From a virus, in UHGV virus genome UHGV-0864147: 39,187 bases of DNA; one strand, 5' to 3'. Positions 436-38,802 of this stretch are shown here, one piece after another. A program made the position numbers and the translations under genes. The notes under the pieces were generated by a model. It searched no databases and had not been told where the DNA came from. It saw only the letters and a list, made by a program, of their open reading frames with translations. How positions within the stretch are numbered: position 1 is the first letter of the stretch; each line of letters begins with the position of its first letter.

Positions 436-1907
436 GCATATGGATCGTACTCGGTAAGCGCCTTGCCTTGCTGGTTCTGCTGCCCGGGAAGTCGCAGGCG
501 CTTTGACACCGGGAAAGCAAACGTCAGCAGTAGCGCATCGCCTTTACCAGGCGAACGCCCAAGCCGCTCCTTGATATCTTCCTTCGGTTCGATAACGATT
601 TTACCGTCCACTCGAACTTTGTACTCTGCCGCCGACAGATCGTCCGCTGTTTCCTGGTCATCCAGCATCCCGCCCAGCCTCAGCCATGTCTTGCATGAGT
701 TGAACATCTCCCCACGCTTGTTGAGCATCTGCGGGTCAGTAGACGCGCCACCGAACGGAACAAGTTGCCATGTACGACCCCAGCCGTCACCGATTGACTT
801 CAAACCGGTTCCGTAACCGAAGTCGATGAACACCGCGTCAGCCTGATACTGGTCTTCAAAGTCAGCGATACGCTTCGCCATAATCAGATCGTCGGTAGTC
901 TTGTTGCCAGTCCACAGCACCTTACTGTGTAGCCCCTGCCGCAGGTATATCACCGCGTCATCAACGCCTGAATATGCCGGGTCAACACCGATTATCACCG
1001 GAGCATGCGCCACCTGCGCAGCGGTTACCACCCGTTTCATTGCCTCATCAGTAAGACCGGTAGGGATAAACTGCAATTCAGATGCATCAGGGAATATGCC
1101 GCGCACACGGATTTTAACGAAGTCGCTGTCTTCCCCGTAGTCATCAACCCATTTCTGCAACTGCTGTTTGTTAGTACCTTCCACCGTCCGGCTGTCAATC
1201 TGCGCAGTTTTCCAGCGGTGTTTGTATTTGCGGAAACATTCGCGAAAACGCCCGGTATTACGTGTAGGGTTTCCGAACGCCACCCAGATAATCTCAGTGT
1301 CTTCGTCCGTAAGCGCACCCTCAGCAACTTCCCACACCAGATCCGCAATGTTCGACGCTTCATCGAATACCACGATGATGCGTTTACGCTCGTTGTGTAG
1401 TCCGGCGAATGCCTCAGTGTTGTGCTCAGACCAGGGGATTGCGTCAGCTCGCCACCGCTTGTCGTGCCCAGGATCATTGCTGTACATCGCAGTAGCGGTA
1501 CAGGTAAACCAGTCTTTCGTGATAGCAAGGTTCGACCACTTGATAATTTCCGGCCAGGTCTTCGTTCGTAGCTGGTTGTCGGTGTTGGCGGTCACCACGA
1601 CCTTACAATCCTCGCAAGTGGACATGCCCCAGTTGATCAGCATTGAGATGAATGCGGATTTACCAATACCGTGACCAGAAGCGCGTGCCAGCATAAGCGG
1701 CTGATAGCGCGTCTCTGGATTCTGCAGGTGATCACGTATCTCTCGGAACGCATCGGCCTGCCACTGACGTGGACCGGTAGCATGTGCCAGTTCAGTCCCC
1801 TCTTCCCCCCAAGGGAACGCATAGAGGGCATAGCCAAGCGGATCGTGAGTGAACCCTGCAATATCTTCGATTAACTGCTCTTCAGGAGATAACGCTGCAT
1901 CTGTCAC
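432..1907 (-). CDS. terL: terminase large subunit
   Basis: 491 aa; Walker A-like GHGIGKS, acidic VVFDEAS motif; immediately downstream of small subunit gene with 4-bp overlap. Confidence 0.85.
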   Translation of the reverse strand: MTDAALSPEEQLIEDIAGFTHDPLGYALYAFPWGEEGTELAHATGPRQWQADAFREIRDHLQNPETRYQPLMLARASGHGIGKSAFISMLINWGMSTCEDCKVVVTANTDNQLRTKTWPEIIKWSNLAITKDWFTCTATAMYSNDPGHDKRWRADAIPWSEHNTEAFAGLHNERKRIIVVFDEASNIADLVWEVAEGALTDEDTEIIWVAFGNPTRNTGRFRECFRKYKHRWKTAQIDSRTVEGTNKQQLQKWVDDYGEDSDFVKIRVRGIFPDASELQFIPTGLTDEAMKRVVTAAQVAHAPVIIGVDPAYSGVDDAVIYLRQGLHSKVLWTGNKTTDDLIMAKRIADFEDQYQADAVFIDFGYGTGLKSIGDGWGRTWQLVPFGGASTDPQMLNKRGEMFNSCKTWLRLGGMLDDQETADDLSAAEYKVRVDGKIVIEPKEDIKERLGRSPGKGDALLLTFAFPVSKRLRLPGQQNQQGKALTEYDPYA

Positions 1908-2536
1908 TGATTACCATCCTGACGTTCTTTGAGTCGCTTCCTGGCTGCCGCTATGCGATCAGCAATTGTCACATTCACATTAACATCCAGGCGCTCTTTG
2001 AACGCGTTAACGTCGACGTGCTTACCGATGAGCTCGAGGTTTTTCACCTTGTCGGGCCATTTCACCTTCTTCAGGATATGCTCGACATCCTCAACAGAGA
2101 GATCCGCCTCGCCATTCTCTTTTTGCAGAGAAGCCTGGGTCGTCTTGATGGTAGCGATATCCATAGCACTGAGAGAGGTACGCCAGACCTTCGGCCATTC
2201 AGCGATCGGCTTCATCCCGCCGTCATCGTTCAGGATATCCAGCACGTCCATCTGGTCGATTTCCACCAGGCGCAGCAGGACATAATCAGCACTGACGCGC
2301 AGGCGCTTGTTGCGCTCCTCCATCAGCTCGGCAATCCGTTTTTGAATGCGTTCATCGCGCATCATGACACTGGCTTTAACTGCCGCTGTATTTGGAGAGA
2401 ATCCTGCGTTAATCGCTGCCTGAGTCTGGTTTTCAGGCGTTTTGATGTATGACTGGCAATAAGCCTCCTGCATTGCTGTTAGTGGCTTAAATTGCGTTGA
2501 TTTGCGTTTATAGGTTTTAGGTTCAGCAGGCATCAT
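1904..2536 (-). CDS. terS: terminase small subunit
   Basis: Translation contains AINAGFSPNTAAVKAS typical of small terminase DNA-binding domain; track ORF starts at TTG 2614, ATG at 2534-2536 preferred (GGTGG upstream). Confidence 0.65.
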   Translation of the reverse strand: MMPAEPKTYKRKSTQFKPLTAMQEAYCQSYIKTPENQTQAAINAGFSPNTAAVKASVMMRDERIQKRIAELMEERNKRLRVSADYVLLRLVEIDQMDVLDILNDDGGMKPIAEWPKVWRTSLSAMDIATIKTTQASLQKENGEADLSVEDVEHILKKVKWPDKVKNLELIGKHVDVNAFKERLDVNVNVTIADRIAAARKRLKERQDGNQ

Positions 2537-2568
2537 AACCACCGTGGTAATAGTTACCGTTGTGGTAA
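2536..2568. promoter_or_regulatory. tandem TTACC-N5-GGTAA-type sites in terS leader
   Basis: Sites 2536-2550 (TAACC/GGTAA) and 2554-2568 (perfect). Confidence 0.4.
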
Positions 2569-2578
2569 TAGTACCATG

Positions 2579-2605
2579 CAAAATAAAGCCGCCATAGTTG
2601 GCGGC
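2579..2605 (-). terminator. intrinsic terminator-like hairpin upstream of terS
   Basis: GCCGCC AACTAT GGCGGC followed by TTTATTTTG on minus strand. Confidence 0.5.
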
Positions 2606-2646
2606 AGTATTCAAAACCCATCAAATTCATCATGCATAATCTACTC

Positions 2647-6014: not shown

Positions 6015-6091
6015 TTACCTCTAAGGTAATTAAAAACCACATAAGACACGAAATCAATAGATTTTAGAATATTTTATTACCCAACAGGTAA
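6015..6091. promoter_or_regulatory. two TTACC-N5-GGTAA sites (6015-6029, 6077-6091)
   Basis: Perfect inverted repeats in intergenic gap inside replication operon. Confidence 0.45.
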
Positions 6092-6929: not shown

Positions 6930-7726
6930 GCTTCAGGGCTGTTCCAGTGCGGAACGTTGTTATCAGGTAATGTTGATTGCTTCTGTCTGCTAATCTGCAG
7001 CCGCCTTGCCAGCTTCTGCTCCCACTGTGCCTGATGGTATGCCTTACCCTCAGCCATCCAGTAAATTCTGAACTCTGCAAGTTCCTGTGCCGTTGGCAGA
7101 CTGTCCAGGTAGATCCCCTGCAATGAGCTTTTCCGAAGAAAGTCATCTGATGGCTGCCATTGTTCATGCATGACAAATTTGCCTAATTGCCCTGGCCCAC
7201 CAGGAGGAACAAAGTTATTCATCACGGCGTTGTTTGCGCCGGGGTCATGATGCACAGAATCCCCGTTTTTTGTCCTGCTCTCCCTCTCTTGGTTAAATGA
7301 CTGGTTATATGACTGGTTCTGGATCCCGTTTTTGGGATCATTCAACATCCCGTTTTTGGGATCATTCAACATCCCGTTTTTGGGTATATTCCCGTTTTCG
7401 GTAACATTACCGTTTTCGGGTTCATTGCCCCCCTCTCGGTTGCCTTTAATGTTCCCGTTTTTGGTTATATTAAGAGAGAAAACCCGCACTCTTTTTGTCG
7501 CTCCCTTTCTCTCTCCGGTATCTGAAATAAGCCCCATTTTCATGAGCGATATAAGCCCGGCCTGCACGGTTTTTTTATTCAGGCAAGTGTCTTTAACGAG
7601 GCGTTCTATGCTGGGGTAGCAGAGGTTATATTCATCGGCTCTGTCAGCCATCGAGAGCAGTATGAGCTTTAATGATGAGCTACCTGGATCTGTCTCCCAG
7701 GCCCAATCTGTTGCATGTCTGCTCAT
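6911..7726 (-). CDS. replication initiator (O-like, N-terminal winged HTH) with internal Asn/Gly-rich repeat
   Basis: N-terminal HTH-like region, repeated NGN/KNGMLNDP peptide encoded by tandem DNA repeats, gene overlaps P-like gene. Confidence 0.65.
   Translation of the reverse strand: MSRHATDWAWETDPGSSSLKLILLSMADRADEYNLCYPSIERLVKDTCLNKKTVQAGLISLMKMGLISDTGERKGATKRVRVFSLNITKNGNIKGNREGGNEPENGNVTENGNIPKNGMLNDPKNGMLNDPKNGIQNQSYNQSFNQERESRTKNGDSVHHDPGANNAVMNNFVPPGGPGQLGKFVMHEQWQPSDDFLRKSSLQGIYLDSLPTAQELAEFRIYWMAEGKAYHQAQWEQKLARRLQISRQKQSTLPDNNVPHWNSPEAWEDFL
7325..7474. repeat. iteron-like tandem repeats (putative ori) inside O-like gene
   Basis: Exact 24-bp tandem duplication at 7325-7348 and 7349-7372 plus four further CCCGTTTTYGG copies. 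Confidence 0.5.
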
Positions 7727-7741
7727 GATTAATCTCCGCTA

Positions 7742-8005
7742 TCAGCTTGAATGTTGTGGGGAGGAATTAATCATGATCTGCTTAATCTCAGCCCTGATGC
7801 GACGGTTTGATTCCATGGTGCACTCAACACAGTGTCCGTTGTAAACCCAACGTTCACTGTCATGTCCGTGCTTACATGGTTTTCCGGTGTAGTAGCGTTT
7901 AAGTCCGCGCTTTGCGGCATCAATACGTGTAATGATTTCCATGGTAAGCCCTGTTATTAGTATTGGGATTACGGTCATTTTGTGCTGACACAAAAAAAAG
8001 ATCAA
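7742..8005 (-). CDS. hypothetical small Cys/His-rich protein at cII-equivalent position
   Basis: 87 aa ORF downstream of Cro-like gene and terminator; CKHGH...CVEC motif. Confidence 0.35.
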   Translation of the reverse strand: MIFFLCQHKMTVIPILITGLTMEIITRIDAAKRGLKRYYTGKPCKHGHDSERWVYNGHCVECTMESNRRIRAEIKQIMINSSPQHSS

Positions 8006-8022
8006 CCAGATTTGGTTTTTTA

Positions 8023-8037
8023 TTACCTTTGAGGTGC
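8023..8037. promoter_or_regulatory. degenerate TTACC-N5-GGTGC site
   Basis: Between terminator and cII-position gene. Confidence 0.3.
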
Positions 8038-8044
8038 GAATAGA

Positions 8045-8071
8045 TATGAAAAGACCGCCGGGTGGCGGTCT
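8045..8071 (-). terminator. tR1-like terminator after Cro-like gene
   Basis: AGACCGCC ACCC GGCGGTCT followed by TTTTCATA on minus strand. Confidence 0.55.
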
Positions 8072-8092
8072 ACAGAGGGTTGTGGCTGGATA

Positions 8093-8323
8093 TCATGAGT
8101 AGAAGAAGTATGCCAGTTCTGCTTTTGAGCGCAGCCATTGTCTTGTTTTACAGGCTTTAAAAAGCCCATTCATCAATACTTTACCTGGCATTTTGCGCTT
8201 ACCTGTTAAGTGAGTCTGGATATAGTGACTCGTCGTTCCGGCTTCCTGTGCGAAGGCTTCACGCTCATCCGGAGTAAGTGCAAGCCAGTGCTTTTTGAAA
8301 TCGAAATGTCCGTTATCGCTCAT
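8093..8323 (-). CDS. Cro-like HTH regulator
   Basis: 76 aa, divergent from repressor gene across operator cluster, followed by terminator. Confidence 0.5.
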   Translation of the reverse strand: MSDNGHFDFKKHWLALTPDEREAFAQEAGTTSHYIQTHLTGKRKMPGKVLMNGLFKACKTRQWLRSKAELAYFFYS

Positions 8324-8348
8324 AGCTATTGCCTGATATTTATTTCAG

Positions 8349-8377
8349 ATAATAAATATTCACCCATAAGGTAACAA
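8349..8377 (-). promoter_or_regulatory. PR-like promoter for Cro-like gene
   Basis: Minus-strand -35 TTGTTA and -10 TATTAT with 17-bp spacer, overlapped by operator site. Confidence 0.4.
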
Positions 8378-8422
8378 AAATCAAGGATAGTTACCTATGG
8401 GGTGCATTTACCTGTTGGGTAA
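8360..8422. promoter_or_regulatory. OR-like operator cluster (three TTACC-N5-GGTAA-type sites at 8360-8374, 8391-8405, 8408-8422)
   Basis: Between divergent repressor and Cro-like genes; one perfect and two degenerate inverted repeats. Confidence 0.55.
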
Positions 8423-8477
8423 TATTGCTTTAAATTGAATCATCTACTGATTCATATACGAGGCGATTTTCCAGAAA

Positions 8478-9062
8478 ATGAAAAGTATCCAGGACGTCCG
8501 CAGGCAAAATCTCAACGACTTGATCGACCGTGAATTCAATGGTGTTCAGACGCGGATGGCAGAAAAACTTGGAACTCAGGCAAATCTGGTAAACCGCTGG
8601 GCTCTTGGCAAGAAGGTTATCGGCGACCAGGTTGCGCGAAAAATTGAAGCTGCCGCCAATAAACCCCGTAACTGGCTTGATATCGATCGCTCGCTTTCTC
8701 AGGAAGGTTTTCAGCCTGTCGGCCCAAGCGACATTGGTCAGCTGGCGGCTCACAACCTGGAACGCTGGATGAGCGAAAGCCGCGACCTTTCAACACAGGG
8801 AAAACTTCACCGCGCATCCGGCGTCGCCCAGGTGACAATCAGCCGCCTGTTAAACAATGAGGTCAGCGTTTCCATTTCCACCCTGGAGAATGTTGCATCC
8901 GCATTCGGGCGTCACGGCTATGAATTACTGATTCACCCGCACGACCCTGCGACCATCAACTATGACCGCTCGCGCTACGCATTGTTACCCGAAACCGAGA
9001 AAGCAAAGATCGAAAGTTACATTGAATTTGTCATCAACCAGAACGAAAAAAACAAACAATAA
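8478..9062 (+). CDS. prophage repressor, two HTH domains, no S24 peptidase domain
   Basis: 194 aa; two XRE-like HTH segments; located at cI position; followed by strong terminator. Confidence 0.55.
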   Translation: MKSIQDVRRQNLNDLIDREFNGVQTRMAEKLGTQANLVNRWALGKKVIGDQVARKIEAAANKPRNWLDIDRSLSQEGFQPVGPSDIGQLAAHNLERWMSESRDLSTQGKLHRASGVAQVTISRLLNNEVSVSISTLENVASAFGRHGYELLIHPHDPATINYDRSRYALLPETEKAKIESYIEFVINQNEKNKQ

Positions 9063-9083
9063 AATCATATTTTTCAGTAAGTA

Positions 9084-9108
9084 AGCCGCCTTCTGGCGGC
9101 TTTTTTAT
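9084..9108 (+). terminator. intrinsic terminator after repressor gene
   Basis: AGCCGCC TTCT GGCGGCT followed by TTTTTTATT. Confidence 0.75.
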
Positions 9109-9119
9109 TGTCTACACAA

Positions 9120-9196
9120 TTACCTTAAGGGTAATTTTTTTAACTCATATCTATTGACACCAAACCAAATACGCATAATCATTACCTCAACGGTAA
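9120..9196. promoter_or_regulatory. OL-like operator pair (9120-9134 and 9182-9196) flanking a TTGACA -35 element (9154-9159)
   Basis: Two perfect TTACC-N5-GGTAA sites; -35 consensus hexamer; -10 assignment uncertain. Confidence 0.5.
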
Positions 9197-9215
9197 CAGA
9201 CCGAGGTAACAAGTT

Positions 9216-9368
9216 ATGCAGTGGAAAATCATCAACGGTTGGTACTGCGTTACTGCATGCGGATTCATGAGCTGGAAGTTCCGCACCTTACAGGAAGGCA
9301 TTAAGTGGGCTTTCGTCAGCAAAGAAGCTCGCGATGTGGCCAACGATAACGAGATATGGGAGGGCTGA
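9216..9368 (+). CDS. small hypothetical protein (50 aa)
   Basis: Not in track; ATG 9216 with GAGGT 8 nt upstream; first gene after PL-like promoter. Confidence 0.3.
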   Translation: MQWKIINGWYCVTACGFMSWKFRTLQEGIKWAFVSKEARDVANDNEIWEG

Positions 9369-9370
9369 TA

Positions 9371-9670
9371 ATGAACGTTAATCAGCAGAAAAATCTTCAA
9401 AAAATCATGCTGGCATTCGACAAGGACTACCGCCTGTCAGAACAGCTATATGACCGACAAGTCGAACTGATTGAGAGTATCCGGCTTCATCAACTGGCCT
9501 CAACTTTTGACGTTGTAACAGGCAAAGGCGTTCGTCAGGAAGTGCTGGAGGCCGCTAAAGACAGCCCTGAGTTCGAAGAACTAATGGATGCCTACCGGCG
9601 AGAGGCAATGGCAATTATCGCCCGCTGGGATCTGGCGGATCAGCTTGATGGACAGAAGGACGCGGCATGA
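9371..9670 (+). CDS. hypothetical protein
   Basis: ATG at 9371 (MNVNQQ...); ATGA overlap with exonuclease start. Confidence 0.45.
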   Translation: MNVNQQKNLQKIMLAFDKDYRLSEQLYDRQVELIESIRLHQLASTFDVVTGKGVRQEVLEAAKDSPEFEELMDAYRREAMAIIARWDLADQLDGQKDAA

Positions 9671-10488
9671 AACCGGGAATTTATTTCGGCATCAGCAACG
9701 AAGACTACCACGCCGGTGACGGCGTGAGTAAGTCGCAACTTGACATGGTTGCCAAGAATCCGGCGCTTCTTAAATGGGTTCAGGCAGCACCAGAAGACGA
9801 AGAGAAAAAGTCTGAACTGGATATGGGAACCGCATTGCACTGTCTGCTTCTGGAACCTGGAGAATTCGACAAACGCTTCATCGTTTCACCGAAATTCGAT
9901 CGTCGGACAAAACAAGGTAAAGCTGACGAAGAAGCATTTCTTCGTGATGTGGCGGATATGGGTATTACGGTACTTGATGTCGAGCAGTGGCGAAAACTGG
10001 AGCTGATGCGTGATAGCACAATGGCTCACCCGGCTGCACGCTGGATGTTGGAAGCACCTGGTTACTGCGAAGCGTCAATGTACTGGAACGATGAAGAGAC
10101 GGGTGAGTTGTGCCGAATTCGTCCAGACAAATGGCTGAACGAGCACAACGTGATCGTCGACGTGAAAAAGGTTGCAGATATGGACCGTTTTGCACGCCAC
10201 ATCGAGGAATTCCGCTACCACGTGCAGGACGCAATGTACCGCGAAGGCGCAATGAGGGTTACTGGTCAGCCGCATGGTTTTTTCTTTCTTGCCGTGAGCG
10301 AAAGCATTGATTGTGGTCGGTATCCGGTACGCGTGTTCGAGCTGGATGCGCAGGATGTCGATGCCGGGCACGCTCTGTTCCGCCGGGATCTGAATACCTA
10401 TCACGAATGCCGCATCAATGATGAATGGGGCGGTGTGGAAATCATTAAACGCCCTGAGTGGGCACGCAAACAGGATATGTACATATGA
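9667..10488 (+). CDS. exonuclease (PD-(D/E)XK family, RecE/YqaJ-like)
   Basis: 273 aa with acidic/lysine catalytic-like motifs (DVKK), translationally coupled to RecT. Confidence 0.7.
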   Translation: MKPGIYFGISNEDYHAGDGVSKSQLDMVAKNPALLKWVQAAPEDEEKKSELDMGTALHCLLLEPGEFDKRFIVSPKFDRRTKQGKADEEAFLRDVADMGITVLDVEQWRKLELMRDSTMAHPAARWMLEAPGYCEASMYWNDEETGELCRIRPDKWLNEHNVIVDVKKVADMDRFARHIEEFRYHVQDAMYREGAMRVTGQPHGFFFLAVSESIDCGRYPVRVFELDAQDVDAGHALFRRDLNTYHECRINDEWGGVEIIKRPEWARKQDMYI

Positions 10489-14263: not shown

Positions 14264-14278
14264 ATACCTTTAAGGTAA
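14264..14278. promoter_or_regulatory. ATACC-N5-GGTAA site upstream of integrase
   Basis: Near-perfect copy about 45 bp upstream of int start. Confidence 0.4.
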
Positions 14279-16328: not shown

Positions 16329-16503
16329 AGCACACACCATTTTTTTTGTACATATCGAACCTCTTCACTTACAGGTCACCAAACACAATAAACCATATAT
16401 GTTTAACCATCAGATATTCTGAAATAACTATCAATTCATTGGTTTTTGATGACAATATTCATAAACAACCATAAATGTAAGGATGTTTATTAGTTGCCAA
16501 AAT

Positions 16504-19110
16504 TTATTTCCTGCAAACTCCAGATGATGTTAATCCATCAAAAATAACCTGCACTCTGGCAATAACAACATCAACTCCAGAAGTCGTTTCACTTGCATAA
16601 CCAAGTTTTATTTTAGATACAATATCCTGAGTAAGTTCAGATATTTCAGTTTCTGCAATGTTACCAGAGGCCATGTGATTATCGTATGCCATAGAATGAA
16701 TTCCATTATTGACATCGATTGAACTAGTATGTTTGTGAAAAATAGATGGGTTTACCTGAAACGAATTTGAACCGATAAGATCAGAAGATACTCCATTCAT
16801 CACTGCAGTACAGCGTGGAATATTATTATCGGTTATTGTCATATGCAGACGGTTACCAGTTAACCCCTCACCAAGTGTGACATAATACGCCAATTCTCCA
16901 CCTGCATATTGTTTCCCCTCAACAATAACAGTAATCCCTCTTAATTTCTGATTAGCTAGCAAAAACTTATTACTGTCTATATAGCATTTATTTGCGGAAC
17001 CAAAAACAGCCCCTTCTAAAATATCTGATGAATAGGAATAAATAAGGTCACCTGAAACAAAGGAAAGAATATCAGATACGTTTCCTTTTTTAGATAAGTT
17101 GGGAGAATAGCTATTAACTATTTCATATTGTCCTGTGATAAAATCAAGGTAAACGCCATCAGTTTTCATCTCTTTAAAGAAAATGCTATTAAAGCATCCA
17201 TCAAGAACCGGTGGATATATTCTAGAGCTTGCATAAGCTGTTGGGTGATTCTTATTATTACCACTACCAGGCGAATAAACATCTTCGTTAGTCATTGACT
17301 TTTTAAGCTTAACAGGAATCATCGGCTGCATATCAATTTTGCAGTTCCCTGAACCACCGATGCGAGGATAAAATAAACCACCAAACCTTACAATATTACT
17401 ACTGAATAGTATTTCGTTATCGTTAAGTGTTATCTCAACGAAGTTTCCAATAAGTTTAAATTCAACTGAAAACAAACCAAGTGGAGCAGATAATTTAACA
17501 ATATTGCGCATAAAAACACCTACAGTCCCTGTTGATGCAGTATAGTGTGTGGTTTCAAAGGCAGAGCCTGTATATTTCAAGTTAATGAAATTATTATGGT
17601 ATGAAGACAATTGGAATTGAATCCCAGAACTAAGGATTTCAATATCTACAAATTGAATCCTTACGGAGTAAGAATATGATAAATCTTCATATTCATAAGG
17701 CAATGTAACATCTTTTGAAATAGTTGCCCTCACATAATTACCAGAAACCACATCAACCCCATCACGTACTGCATTAAAGTAACGATTAAAATCAATAAGC
17801 CCAGCGCCAACATACTGCGCATATGAACGAGTCCATCCTGCCATTGCGTTTCGTCCATTCTGAGCTTCTAAACTGCTAAATTCAGAGTCACTTGTGGTAC
17901 TTGATGGGAGGATATTTGTACAAAAAACAATTTCAGGCATTGAAGTAATATCATTCAGTTCAGCCATCAATTTAAAAAAAGTTTTCTGCGGGAAGTTACC
18001 AACATCCCAACCATCTCCGTCATTCATGCCAAAAGCAATAATAACAACATCAGGGTTAATATCACGAATGTAATCAATCCAGCGTCTGTTCGTGTCTGAA
18101 TACCATGGGTACTGTGAGTTATAAGAAGTAATTGCTGGTGTATCTTTTCCAAGGTCATAGTACCTCATTCCACCAATTGCTCTGTTAAATAAAGTAGAAC
18201 TTGGGAATTTCTCTTGCAAAACTCTCTTAAGATGAGCGGCAAAAATGCTTGATCGATCCACTGTGCTTATATTATATGGGGCACTTAAGCTGTCACCAAC
18301 TAACACTATTTTTGAGTTAGGCCTTGATAATCTCTCAAGTGTTTTAGATGTGACTAAACTGCAGGAATTAATGAACTGAGTACTATTTAGCGTCTGTTCA
18401 AGTGTATCACCAAATCTGGTACCAACGTATGATGATCCGTTGACACTTGCTAGCTTAAGGCATAAATCAGCAGTATCTGTAATTGAAAAAATAGGAACAG
18501 GACGTCCTAAACTGTCATACCCCTGAATTGAGTTTGCCCTAGAAGATGCTGATGCCATTTCGCTTACTATCTCAGGGAAGCGGAGTGTTTTAGATATGTT
18601 GCTGTTAATAACTCCTTTGATAGATGAGTCTGTATATTTCTTCGTGGAAGCGTCCTGAGGAAATAATGGATCATCAAGGTTACGAATACGATTGCCGAGT
18701 GCATCGTAGTAAGTGGCACTAAATGATGGTTTACGAAGAGCCAGCCGAGCCATGCTTTTGACTAACTGGATCAGCATCGTTAGCTTATCAAAAGCATCCT
18801 CATGCACTTCCGCAAAGAACTTACCCTGATTGCGCAGATCAGTTTCCTGTGTAACCGGTAGCTCTCGTGATATAGAAATCTTATAGCCATTGGCCAACGC
18901 CTTCGACAATATTACATTTCCACCATTGTATCCTCCGGCCCCGGTAACTATATAATCAGTATCAAGAGTCAGTACGGTGATATTTTCATGAATATCAACA
19001 ACCTGCACAATCAAATCAGATTTATTGAAAACCCTAAAGGCATACGGAAACGATGTCGTAACGCCGTTACCGGTGTATTCGTTGTGGTCAACTTCGGTTG
19101 AGACCGTCAT
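16504..19110 (-). CDS. tailspike: T7 gp17-like N-terminal adaptor domain plus SGNH/GDSL hydrolase domain
   Basis: 868 aa; N-terminus YTGNGVTTSFPY pattern; internal VLVGDSLSA (block I) and FGMNDG (block III) SGNH motifs; AT-rich. Confidence 0.75.
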   Translation of the reverse strand: MTVSTEVDHNEYTGNGVTTSFPYAFRVFNKSDLIVQVVDIHENITVLTLDTDYIVTGAGGYNGGNVILSKALANGYKISISRELPVTQETDLRNQGKFFAEVHEDAFDKLTMLIQLVKSMARLALRKPSFSATYYDALGNRIRNLDDPLFPQDASTKKYTDSSIKGVINSNISKTLRFPEIVSEMASASSRANSIQGYDSLGRPVPIFSITDTADLCLKLASVNGSSYVGTRFGDTLEQTLNSTQFINSCSLVTSKTLERLSRPNSKIVLVGDSLSAPYNISTVDRSSIFAAHLKRVLQEKFPSSTLFNRAIGGMRYYDLGKDTPAITSYNSQYPWYSDTNRRWIDYIRDINPDVVIIAFGMNDGDGWDVGNFPQKTFFKLMAELNDITSMPEIVFCTNILPSSTTSDSEFSSLEAQNGRNAMAGWTRSYAQYVGAGLIDFNRYFNAVRDGVDVVSGNYVRATISKDVTLPYEYEDLSYSYSVRIQFVDIEILSSGIQFQLSSYHNNFINLKYTGSAFETTHYTASTGTVGVFMRNIVKLSAPLGLFSVEFKLIGNFVEITLNDNEILFSSNIVRFGGLFYPRIGGSGNCKIDMQPMIPVKLKKSMTNEDVYSPGSGNNKNHPTAYASSRIYPPVLDGCFNSIFFKEMKTDGVYLDFITGQYEIVNSYSPNLSKKGNVSDILSFVSGDLIYSYSSDILEGAVFGSANKCYIDSNKFLLANQKLRGITVIVEGKQYAGGELAYYVTLGEGLTGNRLHMTITDNNIPRCTAVMNGVSSDLIGSNSFQVNPSIFHKHTSSIDVNNGIHSMAYDNHMASGNIAETEISELTQDIVSKIKLGYASETTSGVDVVIARVQVIFDGLTSSGVCRK

Positions 19111-19214: not shown

Positions 19215-19229
19215 TTACCTTTATGGTAA
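19215..19229. promoter_or_regulatory. TTACC-N5-GGTAA site upstream of LexA box
   Basis: Perfect arms; 38 bp upstream of LexA box. Confidence 0.45.
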
Positions 19230-19266: not shown

Positions 19267-19286
19267 TACTGTATAAATATACAGTT
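19267..19286 (+). promoter_or_regulatory. LexA (SOS) box
   Basis: TACTGTATAAATATACAGTT, i.e. CTGT-N8-ACAG with AT-rich spacer, 2 mismatches to the 20-mer consensus; 20 bp upstream of ATG 19306. Confidence 0.7.
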
Positions 19287-19305: not shown

Positions 19306-19563
19306 ATGCAGCGGTATCACTATCCACTGGAAGACGGATTTACCGAAAGGATTCACACGCCGGGAGGCGTCAGGTCACTGGTGGAGGGATCGCACTTGAT
19401 GAAATTACTCCGGGATCTCGATAAGGATGGATTTAATGTCGATGGCCCACTTGCCGAACTGACTGCACTGATTAACTACGTCACCAGCTCACAGATGTCT
19501 ATGCGGGATCTGCAAACACATCTCGACTATTGTGCCGAACAATTACGAAAACAAACCAGATAA
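19306..19563 (+). CDS. small protein paralogous to antirepressor C-terminal domain; LexA-regulated
   Basis: ATG 19306 with GGAG upstream; about 45 percent identity to Ant C-terminus by eye; LexA box upstream. Confidence 0.5.
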   Translation: MQRYHYPLEDGFTERIHTPGGVRSLVEGSHLMKLLRDLDKDGFNVDGPLAELTALINYVTSSQMSMRDLQTHLDYCAEQLRKQTR

Positions 19564-19566
19564 GGT

Positions 19567-19609
19567 TTGCAATTACCAAGTGGAGTGCTTATATTTACCT
19601 TTGAGGTAA
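19567..19609 (+). promoter_or_regulatory. promoter-like element (-35 TTGCAA, -10 TATATT) with TTACC-N5-GGTAA site 19595-19609
   Basis: 17-bp spacer; perfect operator-like repeat overlapping -10/+1. Confidence 0.4.
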
Positions 19610-19877
19610 ATTTACATCGCACTCCTCTTGTGCCATAGTAATCGGGCACTGGCAAAATCCAGTGCCGGGATTGGTCTCCCGGATTACTACAGAGGCACAT
19701 ATGCCGCATAAGCGGTTTTTTTTATGTGTAAAGCGCACCTATTCTATGGTGGGCTGTGTGGGGGCACCGAAAGGTGCGCCGGGTTCCTTTGTAGCCGGTA
19801 AGACCAACTCTGCACAGTTCACCACCATCTGATTGGTCTCAGCGGTGGTGATTAACCTAACTACAAAGGTGATCGCC
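19610..19877 (+). ncRNA. structured leader / candidate regulatory RNA upstream of ant
   Basis: Hairpins at 19646-19665, 19665-19682, 19704-19715 plus U8, 19764-19777 (GAAA loop), 19819-19851; CCTTTGTAG (19786-19794) complementary to ant SD region (19861-19869). Confidence 0.3.
19704..19723 (+). terminator. weak terminator/attenuator in ant leader
   Basis: CCGC ATAA GCGG followed by eight T. Confidence 0.35.
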
Positions 19878-20570
19878 ATGAATACCAAACCTTCCATCTT
19901 TTCCTTTGAGTCATCCTGCCAGATCCGTATGTTCATGATTGACGGAGAACCTTGGTTTGTCACCAAAGATGTGTGCAATGCTTTGAATATTGATGTTACA
20001 CAAGCGAGAAAACTTGATAAAAAAGGCTGGAACAAAAAGGGGCTGTATTCAATACAGACCCCTGGTGGAATACAAGAACTATCCATCGTTTCAGAATCAG
20101 GTCTCTACATCCTTATTCTGCGTTGCAAAGAGGCAATGACTGAGGGAACGAGAGCATTCAGATTTCTTGAATGGGTTACAGGCGAGGTTCTTCCTCAGAT
20201 CCGCCGCACCGGAAGTTACATTAAAAACTCGCTACCGCAGGAAGAACGCATAAAGATGGTTGCCGACCAGGTAGCCAACGCCACGGCGTCAGCAGTAATG
20301 CAGGCGATGAAGATAGAGAACAAAACCTACAACGCCCCGCTGAAGCCCGGCTACCGCAGCCTGATTCATTCCCCGTCTGGTGTTCTCGGCCTGACGGAGA
20401 ACTCACTGCTGATGAATCTGCTGAACCAGTTACAGGAAGACGGGCACGACGTATCGGGCGCGGCGGCGGAGCTGACCACCATGTTCTGCTACATCGTCGG
20501 TGTGAGCAAATGCCTGCGTGATATCCAGACGCACGCGGAGTACATCAACGACAAGGCTGGGTTCTTCTGA
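19878..20570 (+). CDS. ant: antirepressor (Bro-N N-terminal domain)
   Basis: FSFESSCQIRMFMIDGEPWFVTKDVCNALNI and GLYILILRC / VLPQIRRTGSY Bro-N signatures. Confidence 0.8.
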   Translation: MNTKPSIFSFESSCQIRMFMIDGEPWFVTKDVCNALNIDVTQARKLDKKGWNKKGLYSIQTPGGIQELSIVSESGLYILILRCKEAMTEGTRAFRFLEWVTGEVLPQIRRTGSYIKNSLPQEERIKMVADQVANATASAVMQAMKIENKTYNAPLKPGYRSLIHSPSGVLGLTENSLLMNLLNQLQEDGHDVSGAAAELTTMFCYIVGVSKCLRDIQTHAEYINDKAGFF

Positions 20571-22098: not shown

Positions 22099-24573
22099 TT
22101 ATTGCGGAGTGACATCCTGAGGTCGCCACCAGTATGTCTGGTTAAACTCTTTCTTCGAACGTTGCTCCATTTTACGCAAATAACCTGGTGAAAAATACTC
22201 CTGCATCTGGTTAAAGATCATGTGATCGAGAGCCGCCTTTAAGTACCAGAGATTCGCACCTGGCATCAGACCTTTCCCCAGCTTGACCAGATCACCACCA
22301 GTCTGCTCATTCTTCCCTTCCACAGCATTTAACGGTATGCCCTGAGCAATCTTCACTACGTCATCAACCAGACCAGCTACCGGGCCAAGCATCGACGCCA
22401 GCGCGCCGCTTCCGTACCTAGTGTGATCTGACAATAAAAAGTCACCGTAAAGGCCAAGACCACCACCTTTCAGTAGAGCACCAAGCCAAAATTTAGCAGC
22501 ATCTTCTCCTGTCATCTCACGAGGATTACGACCAGACGCAAGGTCGTTAAGTTGCTGCGACAAAGCGCCAAGAATGGTCGTACTGGCAATAAACGTCGCA
22601 ATATATGCCGCACGCCCACCAGCAGACGGCATACCCATAGCGCGTGACCAGTGACGCATAACCACCGAGATAGGGAACGATTTAAACAGGAAAACACTTC
22701 TCGTTAATTCACCTTTCCATGTTCCACGCTGAATACCAGAACCGGTTATCAGTTGCTCACGTGCTCCCGGTGTAATAACAGCCATATCAACTTCTTCAGT
22801 TACGGCACCGAGCAGTTTACGCATTGCCTCAAATTTCACGCGTTCAGGCTCACCAAGATGTTTAACTGCTGAATCAGGGATACGCATAATGCTTTCCGGT
22901 GTCAGCATCGTATTATTACCGTTCCCCCAGTCCTCCTGTTGCGCCAGCTTCCATACGCTCCAGTCTGTGTCAGTAATTCCTTTGCTTTTCAGGATACGAA
23001 AATCAGAGTCATCGAGGCTACGAAGGTCTGGTGTCCGTGACACTACTTCTCCCAGGCTTCCCATCATGGTTACGCCATAGGCGCGCTTGTGCGCATCTGA
23101 CCATGCTGTAAGCCCACTGGCACGCATTACCGCCGTTGCCGCCCAGCGAGACACTGACGGCCCCATATTATCCATCGCCCAGCGGTTAACGCTGCCAAGT
23201 AGAGATTCCATCGCCAGACCAGCGCGGCGCGCCCGCGCAAGTTCTGTACGGTTCGTTGGGTCCATAGCTTCAAGCTGGTTGCGGAATAACTGGTTCATTG
23301 GAAGGTTGGTAACCTTCGCAGACAGATACATGGTTCCAAGATCAGAGAACGATGACAGCAACGCGGATCCGAGTCTGCTGGCAACCAGCCAGTTGCGGAT
23401 ATTGTCAGACCATCGCGCGATGTGCGGATTTGCTACAGGCTGTGTCTTTCCGGAAATAAAGTTGTACAGATTCTCTGTGTTGTTCGCCAGCCGCTCGACT
23501 TTACCGGTTTTACTCGGGTTAGCTGTTGCCGTTTCTGCCTTCACCTGATCAAGAAGAGAGCGGAAAACATGATCTGGGTTTGGGCCATATGTTTCCACCA
23601 GTGCAATATCTTTACTGATACCTTCCAGGTGACCGACCATGATTTCCCATAGAGAGCGATCGCCATAAAGTTGCTGATATTGCAGATAGGAATCTGCATC
23701 TTTGAAATGTATCTGTCGTGATGCATTACCACGGTTAGCACGTGCGCCGGAAATTCGCATTCCGGTATCAGTAAGCTTATTCAGCCCACCAGTAGCGATC
23801 GTGTTATAAGCCTCTCCAAGAAATGCAGACAACTCGGCATCGTTCATCAGTTGTCCATCGGCTCGGATATAATATTTGCGATCCAGCTTACCTATAACAT
23901 CGCTAACCCACTTATCCTTTGATACCGCCCCAACCTTTTCCATAGAATGATGTTGAGGGATCCCCCAGTTTTCGAGATAGCCAATGTCCCCGCCAGCATC
24001 ATTAAACCGGCGGCGCAGTAGATCTGTCACTTCTCTCCACGCCTTAGCACCTTTTCTTGCTTTAGCATTGCCAGTATTTTGTCCTCGCATTTCATATACC
24101 AGGTCACGCACGCCAGCTTCATCTTCAAACAGGCCAAAAAAGCGAGGATCAACTGCTTCAAATGCCTCCTGCAATTGACTCAATGCATAATCACGAGTGG
24201 CTTTTGTTCTGGACTCAACAGAGAGGAAATTCGATTTACCGTCTGCATTAAAAGCAATAGTACGGTTAAGAGCGCCAAGTTTCCCATCAGCCCCTTGATA
24301 GCTATTGATAAATTTATCCAATCTCTGACGTGCGGCTATAGTGAGGGCCACACGACGTTTCTTTAATGCCGCTTCTCGCTGTAATTCTTCAGATGCCAAT
24401 TGTGCTGCTCGATATAGCCGCTCTGATTCGGAAAGTTGTCTCCACGACATCGGGTCATCACGAGCAATGGAGCGCATATTTCGATAAATGCGGTCTTCAA
24501 TGTTCTGTATTTCTCGCGCCGTTAACGTGCGCTGCGCCGCCTGCTGAACCGCTTGTATACATTCCTGTCTCAT
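22099..24573 (-). CDS. large virion protein (internal/ejection protein candidate)
   Basis: 824 aa in structural operon. Confidence 0.5.
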   Translation of the reverse strand: MRQECIQAVQQAAQRTLTAREIQNIEDRIYRNMRSIARDDPMSWRQLSESERLYRAAQLASEELQREAALKKRRVALTIAARQRLDKFINSYQGADGKLGALNRTIAFNADGKSNFLSVESRTKATRDYALSQLQEAFEAVDPRFFGLFEDEAGVRDLVYEMRGQNTGNAKARKGAKAWREVTDLLRRRFNDAGGDIGYLENWGIPQHHSMEKVGAVSKDKWVSDVIGKLDRKYYIRADGQLMNDAELSAFLGEAYNTIATGGLNKLTDTGMRISGARANRGNASRQIHFKDADSYLQYQQLYGDRSLWEIMVGHLEGISKDIALVETYGPNPDHVFRSLLDQVKAETATANPSKTGKVERLANNTENLYNFISGKTQPVANPHIARWSDNIRNWLVASRLGSALLSSFSDLGTMYLSAKVTNLPMNQLFRNQLEAMDPTNRTELARARRAGLAMESLLGSVNRWAMDNMGPSVSRWAATAVMRASGLTAWSDAHKRAYGVTMMGSLGEVVSRTPDLRSLDDSDFRILKSKGITDTDWSVWKLAQQEDWGNGNNTMLTPESIMRIPDSAVKHLGEPERVKFEAMRKLLGAVTEEVDMAVITPGAREQLITGSGIQRGTWKGELTRSVFLFKSFPISVVMRHWSRAMGMPSAGGRAAYIATFIASTTILGALSQQLNDLASGRNPREMTGEDAAKFWLGALLKGGGLGLYGDFLLSDHTRYGSGALASMLGPVAGLVDDVVKIAQGIPLNAVEGKNEQTGGDLVKLGKGLMPGANLWYLKAALDHMIFNQMQEYFSPGYLRKMEQRSKKEFNQTYWWRPQDVTPQ

Positions 24574-24578
24574 TTAAT

Positions 24579-34133: not shown

Positions 34134-34184
34134 CTTCTTTCTCCATTAGTGGGTCTGTTACGACCAACAGGTTAATAACAGGCG

Positions 34185-38145: not shown

Positions 38146-38182
38146 TTGACATTTAACGCGTGAATTATTACCTTTCAGGTAA
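38146..38182 (+). promoter_or_regulatory. TTGACA -35-like hexamer with TTACC-N5-GGTAA site 38168-38182
   Basis: Perfect operator-like repeat 17 bp downstream of consensus -35 hexamer; on same strand as tRNA. Confidence 0.4.
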
Positions 38183-38504: not shown

Positions 38505-38581
38505 GTGGCATTAGCTCAGTTGGACAGAGCAACCGCCTTCTAAGCGGTTGGTCGCAGGTTCGAATCCTGCATGCCACGCCA
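38505..38581 (+). tRNA. tRNA-Arg (anticodon UCU)
   Basis: 77 nt cloverleaf: acceptor GTGGCAT/ATGCCAC, D-arm GCTC..GAGC, anticodon stem ACCGC/GCGGT with loop CTTCTAA, T-arm GCAGG TTCGAAT CCTGC, encoded CCA. Confidence 0.85.
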
Positions 38582-38784: not shown

Positions 38785-38802
38785 TTACCTTAAAGGTATA
38801 AT
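38785..38802. promoter_or_regulatory. TTACC-N5-GGTAT site overlapping TATAAT hexamer and SD of moron ORF
   Basis: 9/10 arm match; AAGGT within site sits 6 nt before ATG 38804. Confidence 0.4.

Follow-up and report, generated by a model that had tools for sequence, protein, structure and literature searches.

The closest described relative of the immunity locus analysed here is the Rep/Ant pair of Salmonella phage SPC32H (PDB 5D4Z, 5D50; Kim & Ryu 2013 J Virol; Kim et al. 2016 PNAS), an orthologous system for which the combination of an uncleavable repressor with a LexA-controlled antirepressor has been worked out genetically and structurally. Secondary accounts describe SPC32H Rep as a protein with a DBD-MDD-CAD layout, the three domains serving DNA binding, dimerisation, and tetramerisation together with Ant binding, respectively, and as a tetramer on DNA in which the DNA-binding pairs come from different dimers. 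According to such accounts, the antirepressor is made after self-cleavage of LexA and switches the repressor off through a protein-protein contact, tetrameric Ant binding two Rep dimers and breaking the Rep tetramer. Even closer in sequence are the repressors of phages phiV10 and vB_EcoP_ZX5, under whose names the protein described below is already present in GenBank. The phiV10 record states for gp40 'two helix-turn-helix motifs (PF01381); similar to putative repressor epsilon15p38'. When ORF21 of ZX5, the same protein, was overexpressed, free phage was gone and the endolysin and holin transcripts were down by more than 99.9%, while overexpression of ORF4 from the same phage lowered the prophage titre about 1000-fold and the rep transcripts by 75%. 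The ZX5 paper credits antirepression to ORF4, a Bro-N protein, with the small Ant homologue annotated as hypothetical, and its text mentions neither LexA nor SPC32H.

The window, i.e., the whole stretch of DNA that was analysed, is the 39,187-nt sequence UHGV-0864147, 89% of which is coding. The repressor gene, called from the list of open reading frames, and its immediate surroundings comprise the following features:

8478-9062, plus strand: the rep ORF, with an ATG start and a product of 194 aa
8093-8323, minus strand: gene for a Cro-like small regulator of 76 aa, divergent from rep (phrog_35 'transcriptional repressor', E 5.6e-13)
9083-9102, plus strand: terminator-like hairpin 3' of rep (the phiV10 record has a terminator at the equivalent place)

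Rep is 100% identical to phiV10 gp40 (PhiV10p40) and to the ORF21 repressor of ZX5, among others (tblastn). It aligns to SPC32H Rep over residues 1-190 (5D50_A, E 4e-42, phmmer), with 42% identity at 98% query coverage (tblastn), and to residues 92-198 of SPC32H Rep (5D4Z) with an E-value of 4.1e-20, the identity amounting to 54% in the N-terminal, 34% in the middle and 47% in the C-terminal domain. The architecture of the protein is common to 86 homologues, hence rep is not a chance ORF, and, of 5426 complete E. coli genomes, 539 (∼10%) carry the locus at an identity of at least 95%. The gene order around rep matches that of phiV10, SPC32H, epsilon15, Tyrion and BUCT711, corresponding to a cI-like synteny in Uetakevirus, and downstream of the hairpin lie a PL-like promoter and then recombination, xis and int-side genes. 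The initial annotation had placed the protein at the cI position, and the order of the divergent Cro-like gene, the hairpin and the PL-like promoter bears this out. Judged by its sequence, rep is the gene for the lysogeny maintenance repressor of a common phiV10-like Uetakevirus prophage of E. coli, orthologous to SPC32H Rep.

Neither Rep nor Ant nor the Cro-like protein reached the cut-off of any NCBIfam family. The weak NCBIfam score to HigA (TIGR02607, 18.7 bits, under the cut-off of 47.7), together with the presence of HigA structures among the distant Foldseek matches and the name 'plasmid maintenance system antidote protein VapI' given to the protein in the record of phage BP9, could be taken to mean that the ORF encodes an antitoxin or another accessory XRE regulator and not an immunity repressor. 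We consider the probability of this to be negligible, as no toxin gene is adjacent, the neighbours being the cro-like gene and early phage genes; the gene has a cI-like setting, amid operators, early promoters and a cro-like gene; the protein is homologous over its full length to a repressor that has been characterised by structure and genetics; and the overexpression phenotype reported for ZX5 speaks for a repressor.

Three domains could be mapped on the repressor:

8478-8693, plus strand: N-terminal HTH DNA-binding domain, residues 1-72 (helix 2 at 24-31; recognition helix at 35-43, ANLVNRWAL)
8730-8933, plus strand: second, HTH_3-like domain of five helices, residues 85-152, counterpart of the middle dimerisation domain (MDD) of SPC32H Rep
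8934-9059, plus strand: C-terminal domain, residues 153-194, counterpart of the CAD, to which tetramerisation and Ant binding are ascribed in SPC32H

The two HTH-like segments proposed initially were recovered by Pfam HTH_3, by PHROG families and as bundles in the AlphaFold2 model. HTH_3 matches Rep in two stretches with 38.5 bits (cut-off 23, E 1.2e-9), the best one covering residues 106-147, and residues 1-76 are covered by matches to PHROG repressor families (E-values of 2.8e-11 and 4.1e-10); the N-terminal part also resembles a YdaS-type HTH (Pfam YdaS_toxin, residues 21-61), with a sub-threshold score of 21 bits (cut-off 30). The AlphaFold2 model (mean pLDDT 78.9) consists of two helical bundles, with helices at residues 4-19, 24-31, 35-43 and 50-59 in the first and at 85-100, 107-114, 118-125, 133-142 and 147-151 in the second, separated by a disordered linker (75-81) and followed by a C-terminal helix (172-193); the C-terminal domain is modelled with moderate confidence (pLDDT 51-76), and its strand-helix detail with low confidence. 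The best PDB matches of the model found by Foldseek are 5D50 and 5D4Z (for the middle domain, TM-score 0.6-0.7, normalised to 5D4Z), and the others listed are XRE-type HTH proteins (such as SinR, C.AhdI, DdrO and HigA). Among 28 homologues, N36, R40 and W41 of the N-terminal domain are invariant, and in the C-terminal domain the homologue alignment shows Y162, L170 and F184 as invariant and P171, K175 and E179 as almost so. The two HTH domains likely share a fold, and hhalign pairs them in HTH register, albeit weakly (probability 21%, E 1e-3 in a single comparison). BLASTP gives no alignment between HTH domains 1 and 2, and a recent internal duplication is not supported. Rep shares the three-domain layout of SPC32H Rep; since the two proteins are only 42% identical (34% in the middle domain), its oligomeric state and Ant contacts are extrapolated.

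As the three mapped domains take up all 194 residues, there is no space for an S24 domain. At thresholds of E<=1 for Pfam and E<=0.01 for NCBIfam, Peptidase_S24 gave no match to Rep, the 50 PDB matches listed by Foldseek include no S24 structure, and neither an AG nor a CG dipeptide, as expected for an Ala-Gly or Cys-Gly cleavage site, occurs anywhere in the protein. We can assign Rep, from its amino-acid sequence, to the repressors that carry no autocleavage module, and not to the Peptidase S24 repressors of the LexA/lambda CI type. The absence of an autoproteolysis module, already noted in the initial annotation, is in agreement with the domain search, the Foldseek matches and the missing dipeptides.

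The operator is a palindrome of 15-17 bp, (A)TTACC-N5-GGTAA(T), in which 10 bp separate the centres of the half-sites. Allowing no more than one mismatch, it is found 16 times in the window versus 0.85 times expected (a ∼19-fold excess), a number reached in none of 100 shuffles, and 13 of the 16 sites are intergenic despite a coding density of 89% (P about 2e-10). The motif matches the repressor-binding sites annotated in the epsilon15 record, and the half-site is the same across five Uetakevirus genomes. Operator sites overlap or bracket the predicted early promoters on either side of rep, and are also found at other promoter regions, including that of ant:

8360-8374, no strand assigned: O1, in the rep/cro intergenic region, TCACC-N5-GGTAA, within the predicted minus-strand promoter of the cro-like gene (8377-8349)
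8391-8405, no strand assigned: O2, TTACC-TATGG-GGTGC, with two mismatches; its position is conserved, and the site is perfect in SPC32H, epsilon15 and BUCT711
8408-8422, no strand assigned: O3, a perfect TTACC-N5-GGTAA, at the same distance from O2 (17 bp) as its SPC32H counterpart
9120-9134, no strand assigned: operator upstream of the PL-like promoter, from the motif scan
9154-9182, plus strand: predicted PL-like sigma-70 promoter, TTGACA-17-AATCAT (10 of 12 consensus matches)
9182-9196, no strand assigned: operator that borders on the PL-like promoter at its -10 hexamer and start region; its distance from the site at 9120 is 62 bp
6015-6091, no strand assigned: pair of operators (6015-6029; 6077-6091) with a spacing of 62 bp, located between the DUF1064 gene and the replication genes
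2536-2568, no strand assigned: two adjacent operator-like sites directly upstream of the small terminase gene
14264-14278, no strand assigned: operator-like site with one mismatch, located ∼43 bp upstream of where the integrase gene starts, kept in all compared genomes
38168-38182, no strand assigned: perfect operator upstream of the block that holds the head and portal genes
19215-19229, no strand assigned: perfect operator between the tailspike gene and ant, whose counterpart is annotated in epsilon15 as a repressor-binding site
19595-19609, no strand assigned: perfect operator directly past a promoter-like site (19566-19595) and before the isrK/C4/Bro-N module

The spacing of the pair at 9120 and 9182 (62-63 bp) is kept in four other genomes, and the operator at 6077 fills the spacer of a predicted minus-strand promoter (6098-6071). 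Consensus scanning yielded no convincing promoter for rep or ant.

A two-fold palindrome whose half-sites lie one helical turn apart requires two identical readers, and the geometry of the operator thus fits two copies of one HTH, not two different HTHs per chain. Helix 3 of the N-terminal domain (NLVNRW) is kept across the genus, as is the operator half-site, whereas the equivalent helix of the middle domain varies (QVTISR in Rep versus PATVNR in SPC32H Rep). The initial annotation had instead suggested that a tandem HTH architecture suits recognition of a bipartite inverted repeat, meaning that both HTH domains of each chain would touch DNA and that the tandem arrangement would read the two arms of the repeat. 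The middle domain indeed scores above the HTH_3 threshold, carries the canonical XRE signature GV(A/S)QxTISR, with Q118 and R123 invariant in close homologues, and has a predicted fold like that of the DNA-binding XRE domains of SinR, C.AhdI and DdrO. Yet we find a dual reading of this kind very improbable: the operator is a simple and perfect palindrome, with no second conserved motif within 20 bp on either side; the middle helix differs between Rep and SPC32H Rep although their operators are alike; the middle domain is not basic, with a net charge of -1 versus +5 for the N-terminal domain; and a secondary account of SPC32H Rep describes its middle domain as a dimerisation domain. As the HTH-like domain serves dimerisation there, the second HTH of Rep would, by analogy, be an oligomerisation module and not a second operator reader. 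The invariance of Q118 and R123 makes some DNA contact by the middle domain possible, and a less likely role for this domain would be to touch DNA and help bridge the conserved 62-bp operator pairs.

The putative counterpart of the repressor is encoded some 10 kb further along the window, in a short region with two features:

19306-19563, plus strand: ant, coding for an antirepressor of 85 aa, about 87% identical to SPC32H Ant (tblastn; phrog_450, E 1.2e-47)
19269-19284, no strand assigned: near-consensus LexA box CTGTATAAATATACAG, which precedes the ATG of ant by 21 nt

Ant matches the structure of SPC32H Ant (5D50_E) with an E-value of 3.5e-46, and no Pfam family scored above cut-off for it. 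The pattern CTGT-N8-ACAG occurs three times in the window, versus 0.41 times expected, and only the occurrence before ant has an AT-rich core. The other two, at 34155 and 38697, were rejected as LexA sites; they have GC-rich cores, and one of them neighbours the tRNA gene, the other being located between two capsid-region ORFs. The box before ant, including its distance of 21 nt from the ATG, is conserved in the window, phiV10, Tyrion, SPC32H and epsilon15; BUCT711 has an ant homologue, with no exact LexA box found before it. For SPC32N, mutation of the LexA box reportedly gave constitutive induction. The homology of Rep and Ant to their SPC32H counterparts and the conserved LexA box make the predicted mode of induction, antirepressor-dependent and linked to the SOS response, well supported. 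Antirepressor-dependent immunity with a LexA-controlled antirepressor had also been put forward from the start, and the Ant homology, the LexA box and the SPC32H accounts all support it.

Adjoining ant, we observed a second protein with an Ant domain, fused to Bro-N and preceded by isrK-like and C4-like RNAs:

19878-20570, plus strand: gene for a Bro-N protein (Pfam Bro-N, E 1.9e-13) with a second Ant-type domain at residues 149-225
19646-19722 and 19742-19829, plus strand: isrK-like sRNA and C4-type antisense RNA, respectively (Rfam scores of 74.7 and 78.6 bits, each exceeding the gathering score)

The Ant-type domain of this protein is 43% identical to the small Ant (E 8e-17) and matches 5D50_E with an E-value of 4.9e-14; the protein is of the same type as ORF4 of ZX5, there called an 'anti-repressor'. 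The loop of the C4 RNA is complementary to 9 nt over the ribosome-binding site of the Bro-N gene, whose promoter region carries a Rep operator. Translation of the fusion looks to be gated by a C4 antisense RNA in the style of P1 and P7 and by the IsrK-like sRNA. It could be argued that the Bro-N protein is the physiological antirepressor, replacing or joining the small Ant, and that induction is gated mainly by isrK and C4, given the effects of ZX5 ORF4 overexpression on titre and rep transcripts, the Ant-type nature of the C-terminal 77 residues, and the RNAs preceding the gene with a C4 loop that pairs with the region of the ribosome-binding site. But the module is missing in SPC32H, epsilon15 and BUCT711 and frameshifted in phiV10, and is thus dispensable for the genus, whereas four of the five comparison genomes have the small ant together with its LexA box; moreover, the ZX5 data come from overexpression only. 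We therefore regard this alternative as unlikely. More tentatively, Rep may receive two separate inactivation inputs through two Ant-type domains, one from stand-alone Ant, released by LexA cleavage upon SOS induction, and one from the Bro-N::Ant fusion; if true, the switch would work as a feed-forward device with a dual input.

Taken as a whole, the explanation that we favour, and hold with considerable confidence, is an SPC32H-type Rep that is switched off by LexA-controlled Ant without self-cleavage. Extrapolating from SPC32H, Rep would dimerise via its middle HTH-like domain and tetramerise via its C-terminal domain, N-terminal domains would act in pairs, with one palindrome read per pair, and the lytic promoters would be silenced by the DNA-bound tetramer. 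Upon DNA damage, Rep would stay uncut while RecA-stimulated cleavage of LexA would derepress ant. Tetrameric Ant would then bind the C-terminal domains of two Rep dimers and capture the N-terminal domains, splitting the Rep tetramer and releasing the DNA, in an inactivation that would be reversible.

The value of these assignments lies in annotation, as a locus found in ∼10% of complete E. coli genomes is labelled only 'helix-turn-helix domain-containing protein' and the small ant gene mostly 'hypothetical', the antirepressor role having been given to another gene in ZX5. The Rep/Ant/LexA circuit predicts that these prophages, including the phiV10-type phages used for O157 typing and as reporters, would be SOS-inducible without repressor cleavage, and that a single operator code would hold genus-wide.

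Among known systems, SPC32H Rep/Ant shares with the locus the three-domain layout, the genomic position, the operator half-sites, and an ant gene lying beside the tailspike gene, with an 87% identical product and a LexA box likewise 21 nt from its ATG. SPC32H differs in that the two Rep proteins are only 42% identical, with the linker of Rep six residues shorter according to the alignment with SPC32H Rep, and in having no isrK/C4/Bro-N::Ant module of the kind that adjoins ant here. From phiV10 gp40 and ZX5 ORF21 there is no protein difference at all. Epsilon15 gp38 is a homologous repressor (42% identity) whose annotated sites, ATTACC-N5-GGTAAT, correspond to the motif found here, although three sites are annotated in its OL-like region versus two clear ones in the window, the epsilon15 sites being record annotations. 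Coliphage 186 (Tum) and the Gifsy prophages similarly combine an uncleavable repressor with a small LexA-repressed protein that inactivates it; the Tum and Gifsy antirepressor proteins gave no match to Rep or Ant in any search. Kim and Ryu reportedly found the SPC32H-type Ant to be structurally distinct from the antirepressors of Siphoviridae and Myoviridae. More distantly, SinR/SinI of Bacillus subtilis and Rco/Rap of pLS20 also consist of a tetrameric XRE-type HTH repressor with a C-terminal oligomerisation domain and a partner antagonist; the SinR-SinI structure (1B0N) is a distant Foldseek match of Rep (E 0.09), and Rco has been described as an analogue of Rep. SinR and Rco have no middle HTH-like dimerisation domain, however, and the likeness is one of fold and logic only. 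Finally, the S24 repressors lambda CI and LexA resemble Rep in genome position, in an N-terminal HTH acting on grouped palindromic operators and in the link to the SOS response, whereas Rep has no S24 domain, cleavage site or Ser-Lys dyad module, and the SOS signal would reach the switch by another route, through LexA control of ant here versus RecA-stimulated self-cleavage in lambda CI.

The gene that occupies the place of cI in lambda is rep (8478-9062, plus strand), which lies where the initial annotation placed it, starts with an ATG, has 194 codons and encodes the prophage repressor Rep. The genome is that of a phiV10-like Uetakevirus, reversed in orientation relative to the reference record. 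Over the 2 kb around rep (7700-9700), identity is 97-100% with phiV10, PAS61, the O157 typing phages, ZX5 and others, and both phiV10 gp40 and the ZX5 'repressor' have the same amino-acid sequence as Rep (100% identity). Of 5426 complete E. coli genomes, 539 carry the locus at 95% identity or more, and in these the gene is labelled only 'helix-turn-helix domain-containing protein'. Its neighbours are:

8093-8323, minus strand: Cro-like gene, 76 aa, divergent from rep (phrog_35, E 5.6e-13)
9083-9102: terminator-like hairpin after rep
9154-9182, plus strand: strong promoter-like site, PL-like (TTGACA-17-AATCAT), reading into the recE/recT, alpA/xis and methylase genes, towards int

Rep had been described as carrying two HTH segments and no peptidase module. 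Pfam HTH_3 matches it in two stretches (38.5 bits versus a threshold of 23, E 1.2e-9; best at 106-147), the N-terminal part gives a sub-threshold Pfam match to a YdaS-type HTH, and residues 1-76 match PHROG repressor families. An AlphaFold2 model built from 28 homologues (mean pLDDT 78.9) predicts two helical bundles (helices 4-19/24-31/35-43/50-59 and 85-100/107-114/118-125/133-142/147-151) with a disordered linker (75-81) between them, and a C-terminal segment closing with a long helix (172-193). In a Foldseek search of the PDB with this model, the Rep of phage SPC32H (5D50, 5D4Z) came out on top, followed by the XRE-type HTH proteins NHTF, SinR, DdrO, C.AhdI and HigA, and no S24 peptidase was among the 50 matches listed. 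Peptidase_S24 gave no match in Pfam at E≤1 or in NCBIfam at E≤0.01, and the whole Rep sequence is devoid of AG or CG dipeptides. Both parts of the description are therefore confirmed. The dual-HTH observation is already on record, as the phiV10 entry carries the note 'two helix-turn-helix motifs (PF01381); similar to putative repressor epsilon15p38'.

Rep can be aligned over its whole length with the repressor chain of 5D50, the SPC32H Rep-Ant complex (E 4e-42), and also aligns with 5D4Z, which covers residues 92-198 of SPC32H Rep (E 4.1e-20). Of its segments, the N-terminal domain shares 54% identity with SPC32H Rep, the C-terminal domain 47%, the middle domain 34% and the linker 22%. Every testable feature of the SPC32H-type family was found in Rep, and both features tested for S24 autocleaving repressors were absent from it. 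In secondary accounts of the system, SPC32H Rep binds DNA through its N-terminal domain, dimerises through a middle domain (MDD) and uses its C-terminal domain (CAD) for tetramer formation and antirepressor binding; it is a tetramer on DNA, its DNA-binding pairs being proposed to come from different dimers. Ant-type antirepressors are described there as being made after LexA self-cleavage and as inhibiting the repressor through protein-protein contact. In the ZX5 study, overexpression of a repressor identical to Rep abolished free phage and cut endolysin transcripts by 99.99% and holin transcripts by 99.97%.

The motif TTACC-N5-GGTAA, with at most one mismatch, occurs 16 times in the window (9 perfect sites; 0.85 expected), a count reached in 0 of 100 shuffles. 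About 89% of the window is coding, yet 13 of the 16 sites fall between genes (binomial P ~2e-10); of the three counted as coding, one (19595) is covered only by a spurious ORF overlapping an isrK-like RNA. The motif is also present in phiV10, SPC32H, epsilon15, Tyrion and Klebsiella phage BUCT711, and the epsilon15 record annotates 'repressor' binding sites that coincide with it. Candidate operators include:

8360, 8391 and 8408: three sites between rep and the Cro-like gene
9120 and 9182: pair 62 bp apart, downstream of rep, flanking the PL-like promoter on both sides
6015 and 6077 (6015-6091): second 62-bp pair, at a minus-strand promoter between the replication genes and a DUF1064 gene
2536-2568: operators upstream of terS
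14264-14278: operator upstream of int
19215-19229 and 19595-19609: operators on either side of the antirepressor gene ant, the latter before the post-ant module
38168-38182: operator upstream of the head-gene block
38785-38799: operator

The rep/cro sites are spaced by 31 and 17 bp, versus 30 and 17 bp in SPC32H, and the 62-63 bp spacing of the pairs is kept at both loci in the other four genomes compared. The operators overlap predicted promoters, the 6077 site occupying the spacer of its minus-strand promoter, and extend beyond the immunity region, which hints at direct silencing of many transcription units by Rep. In phiV10, the operator-like pair near terS (sites 87 and 105) falls within the annotated 5' end of the gene (CDS start 41; phiV10 41-715 compared with window 1904-2614), and in SPC32H and Tyrion their equivalents precede the terS start; the phiV10 annotation may have placed the start too far upstream. 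A tRNA-Arg (anticodon TCT; 38505-38581, plus strand) is shared with phiV10 and SPC32H. The gap between the tail-fibre gene and the lysis cassette (16340-16504) is only ~160 bp and contains no counterpart of phiV10 oac (23636-24652; O-antigen acetyltransferase, superinfection immunity).

The initial annotation had further proposed that the tandem HTHs fit a bipartite inverted repeat, a reading that the operators argue against. In 36 perfect sites from four genomes, the information profile is confined to the 17-bp palindrome, with no conserved motif in the 20 bp flanking it on each side. The half-site centres are 10 bp apart, and a perfect two-fold palindrome of that geometry is read by two identical HTH units in a symmetric arrangement, whereas a chain using two different HTH domains would call for an asymmetric composite site. 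The half-site is invariant although the Reps are only ~42% identical across phages, and helix 3 of the N-terminal domain is conserved as well (NLVNRW; N36, R40 and W41 invariant), whereas its middle-domain counterpart differs (QVTISR here versus PATVNR in SPC32H). Net charge is +5 in the N-terminal and -1 in the middle domain, and the latter is assigned to dimerisation in the SPC32H literature. Half-site and helix 3 conservation, charge and the published MDD role thus favour the N-terminal domain as the reader of the operator. That the middle domain also makes some DNA contact, as its canonical XRE signature and the invariance of Q118 and R123 in close homologues might indicate, we consider very improbable. 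The half-site and the N-terminal recognition helix shared by all five Uetakevirus genomes compared (E. coli, Salmonella, Enterobacter and Klebsiella phages) raise the possibility of cross-immunity among these phages, and cross-induction could occur via their Ant proteins, which are 65-87% identical.

CTGT-N8-ACAG occurs three times in the window (0.41 expected), and a single match has an AT-rich core:

19269-19284: LexA box CTGTATAAATATACAG
19306-19563, plus strand: ant, 85 aa, starting 21 nt downstream of the LexA box

With its flanks the box reads TACTGTATAAATATACAGTT; the E. coli LexA consensus is TACTGTATATATATACAGTA, and the two agree at 18 of 20 positions. Ant shares 87% identity with SPC32H Ant and aligns with the Ant chain of 5D50 at E 3.5e-46. 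The LexA box, the 21-nt gap to the ant ATG and the placement beside the tailspike gene are common to phiV10, Tyrion, SPC32H and epsilon15, and the ant upstream regions can be aligned over their full extent among these phages. Because box, spacing and gene place are conserved and Ant is homologous, the LexA-controlled antirepressor put forward initially probably holds, by strong homology. In work by Kim & Ryu (2013), SPC32H Rep reportedly remained uncleaved during SOS, and a single base change in the ant LexA box is said to have rendered SPC32N constitutively lytic. No exact CTGT-N8-ACAG was found before the BUCT711 ant homologue (17054-17314). Within 34-399 of BUCT711, a LexA box (384-399) precedes an ORF starting MGFPSPAADYVE, presumably a UmuD/HumD-type S24 protein.

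Two RNAs lie between ant and a Bro-N gene:

19646-19722, plus strand: isrK-type sRNA (Rfam 74.7 bits, above the gathering score)
19742-19829, plus strand: C4-type antisense RNA (Rfam 78.6 bits, above the gathering score)
19878-20570, plus strand: Bro-N protein gene, 230 aa

The small Ant has a homologue in residues 149-225 of the Bro-N protein (43% identity, E 8e-17; 5D50 chain E, E 4.9e-14), and the phage therefore has two Ant-type domains. The C4 loop CCUUUGUAG (19786-19794) has a complement in CUACAAAGG (19861-19869), a stretch covering the Bro-N ribosome-binding site; in P1/P7 immI, C4 RNA blocks icd/ant translation by such pairing. AGACCAA (19801-19807) is likewise complementary to TTGGTCT at 19833-19839 and 19671-19677, and the Rep operator at 19595-19609 abuts a promoter-like site ahead of the module. 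ZX5 and Tyrion carry the module, phiV10 has a frameshifted version, and SPC32H, epsilon15 and BUCT711 lack it. The ZX5 authors regard this type of Bro-N protein as an anti-repressor (ORF4), tested through overexpression, and left the small Ant homologue 'hypothetical'. The arrangement points to a possible second way of inactivating Rep, gated by RNA.

For a peptidase-free repressor of this domain layout and operator set, with a LexA box before ant, SPC32H offers a model in which Rep would dimerise via its middle domain and tetramerise via its C-terminal domain, each palindrome would be bound by N-terminal pairs, and a single tetramer may span a 62-bp operator pair with its two N-terminal pairs. 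After DNA damage, LexA would be cleaved and Ant made, and Ant tetramers would bind the Rep C-terminal domains, sequester the N-terminal domains and dismantle the Rep tetramer, so that early promoters would be derepressed reversibly and without proteolysis. Already on record are the Rep sequence with both HTH motifs, the repressor function and the mechanism of the family; new are the correction of the tandem-HTH idea, an operator map for the whole genus, the tie of an unannotated small ant to LexA in E. coli phages, and the Bro-N::Ant/C4/isrK module beside it. The logic of Rep/Ant resembles that of 186 CI/Tum and the Gifsy repressor/antirepressor pairs, with their LexA-controlled antirepressors, and that of SinR/SinI and Rco/Rap, in which a tetrameric XRE repressor meets a partner antagonist, while the layout of the post-ant module is similar to the P1/P7 immI control module and, in its order of isrK, small ORF and antirepressor, parallels isrK-orf45-anrP of Gifsy-1.
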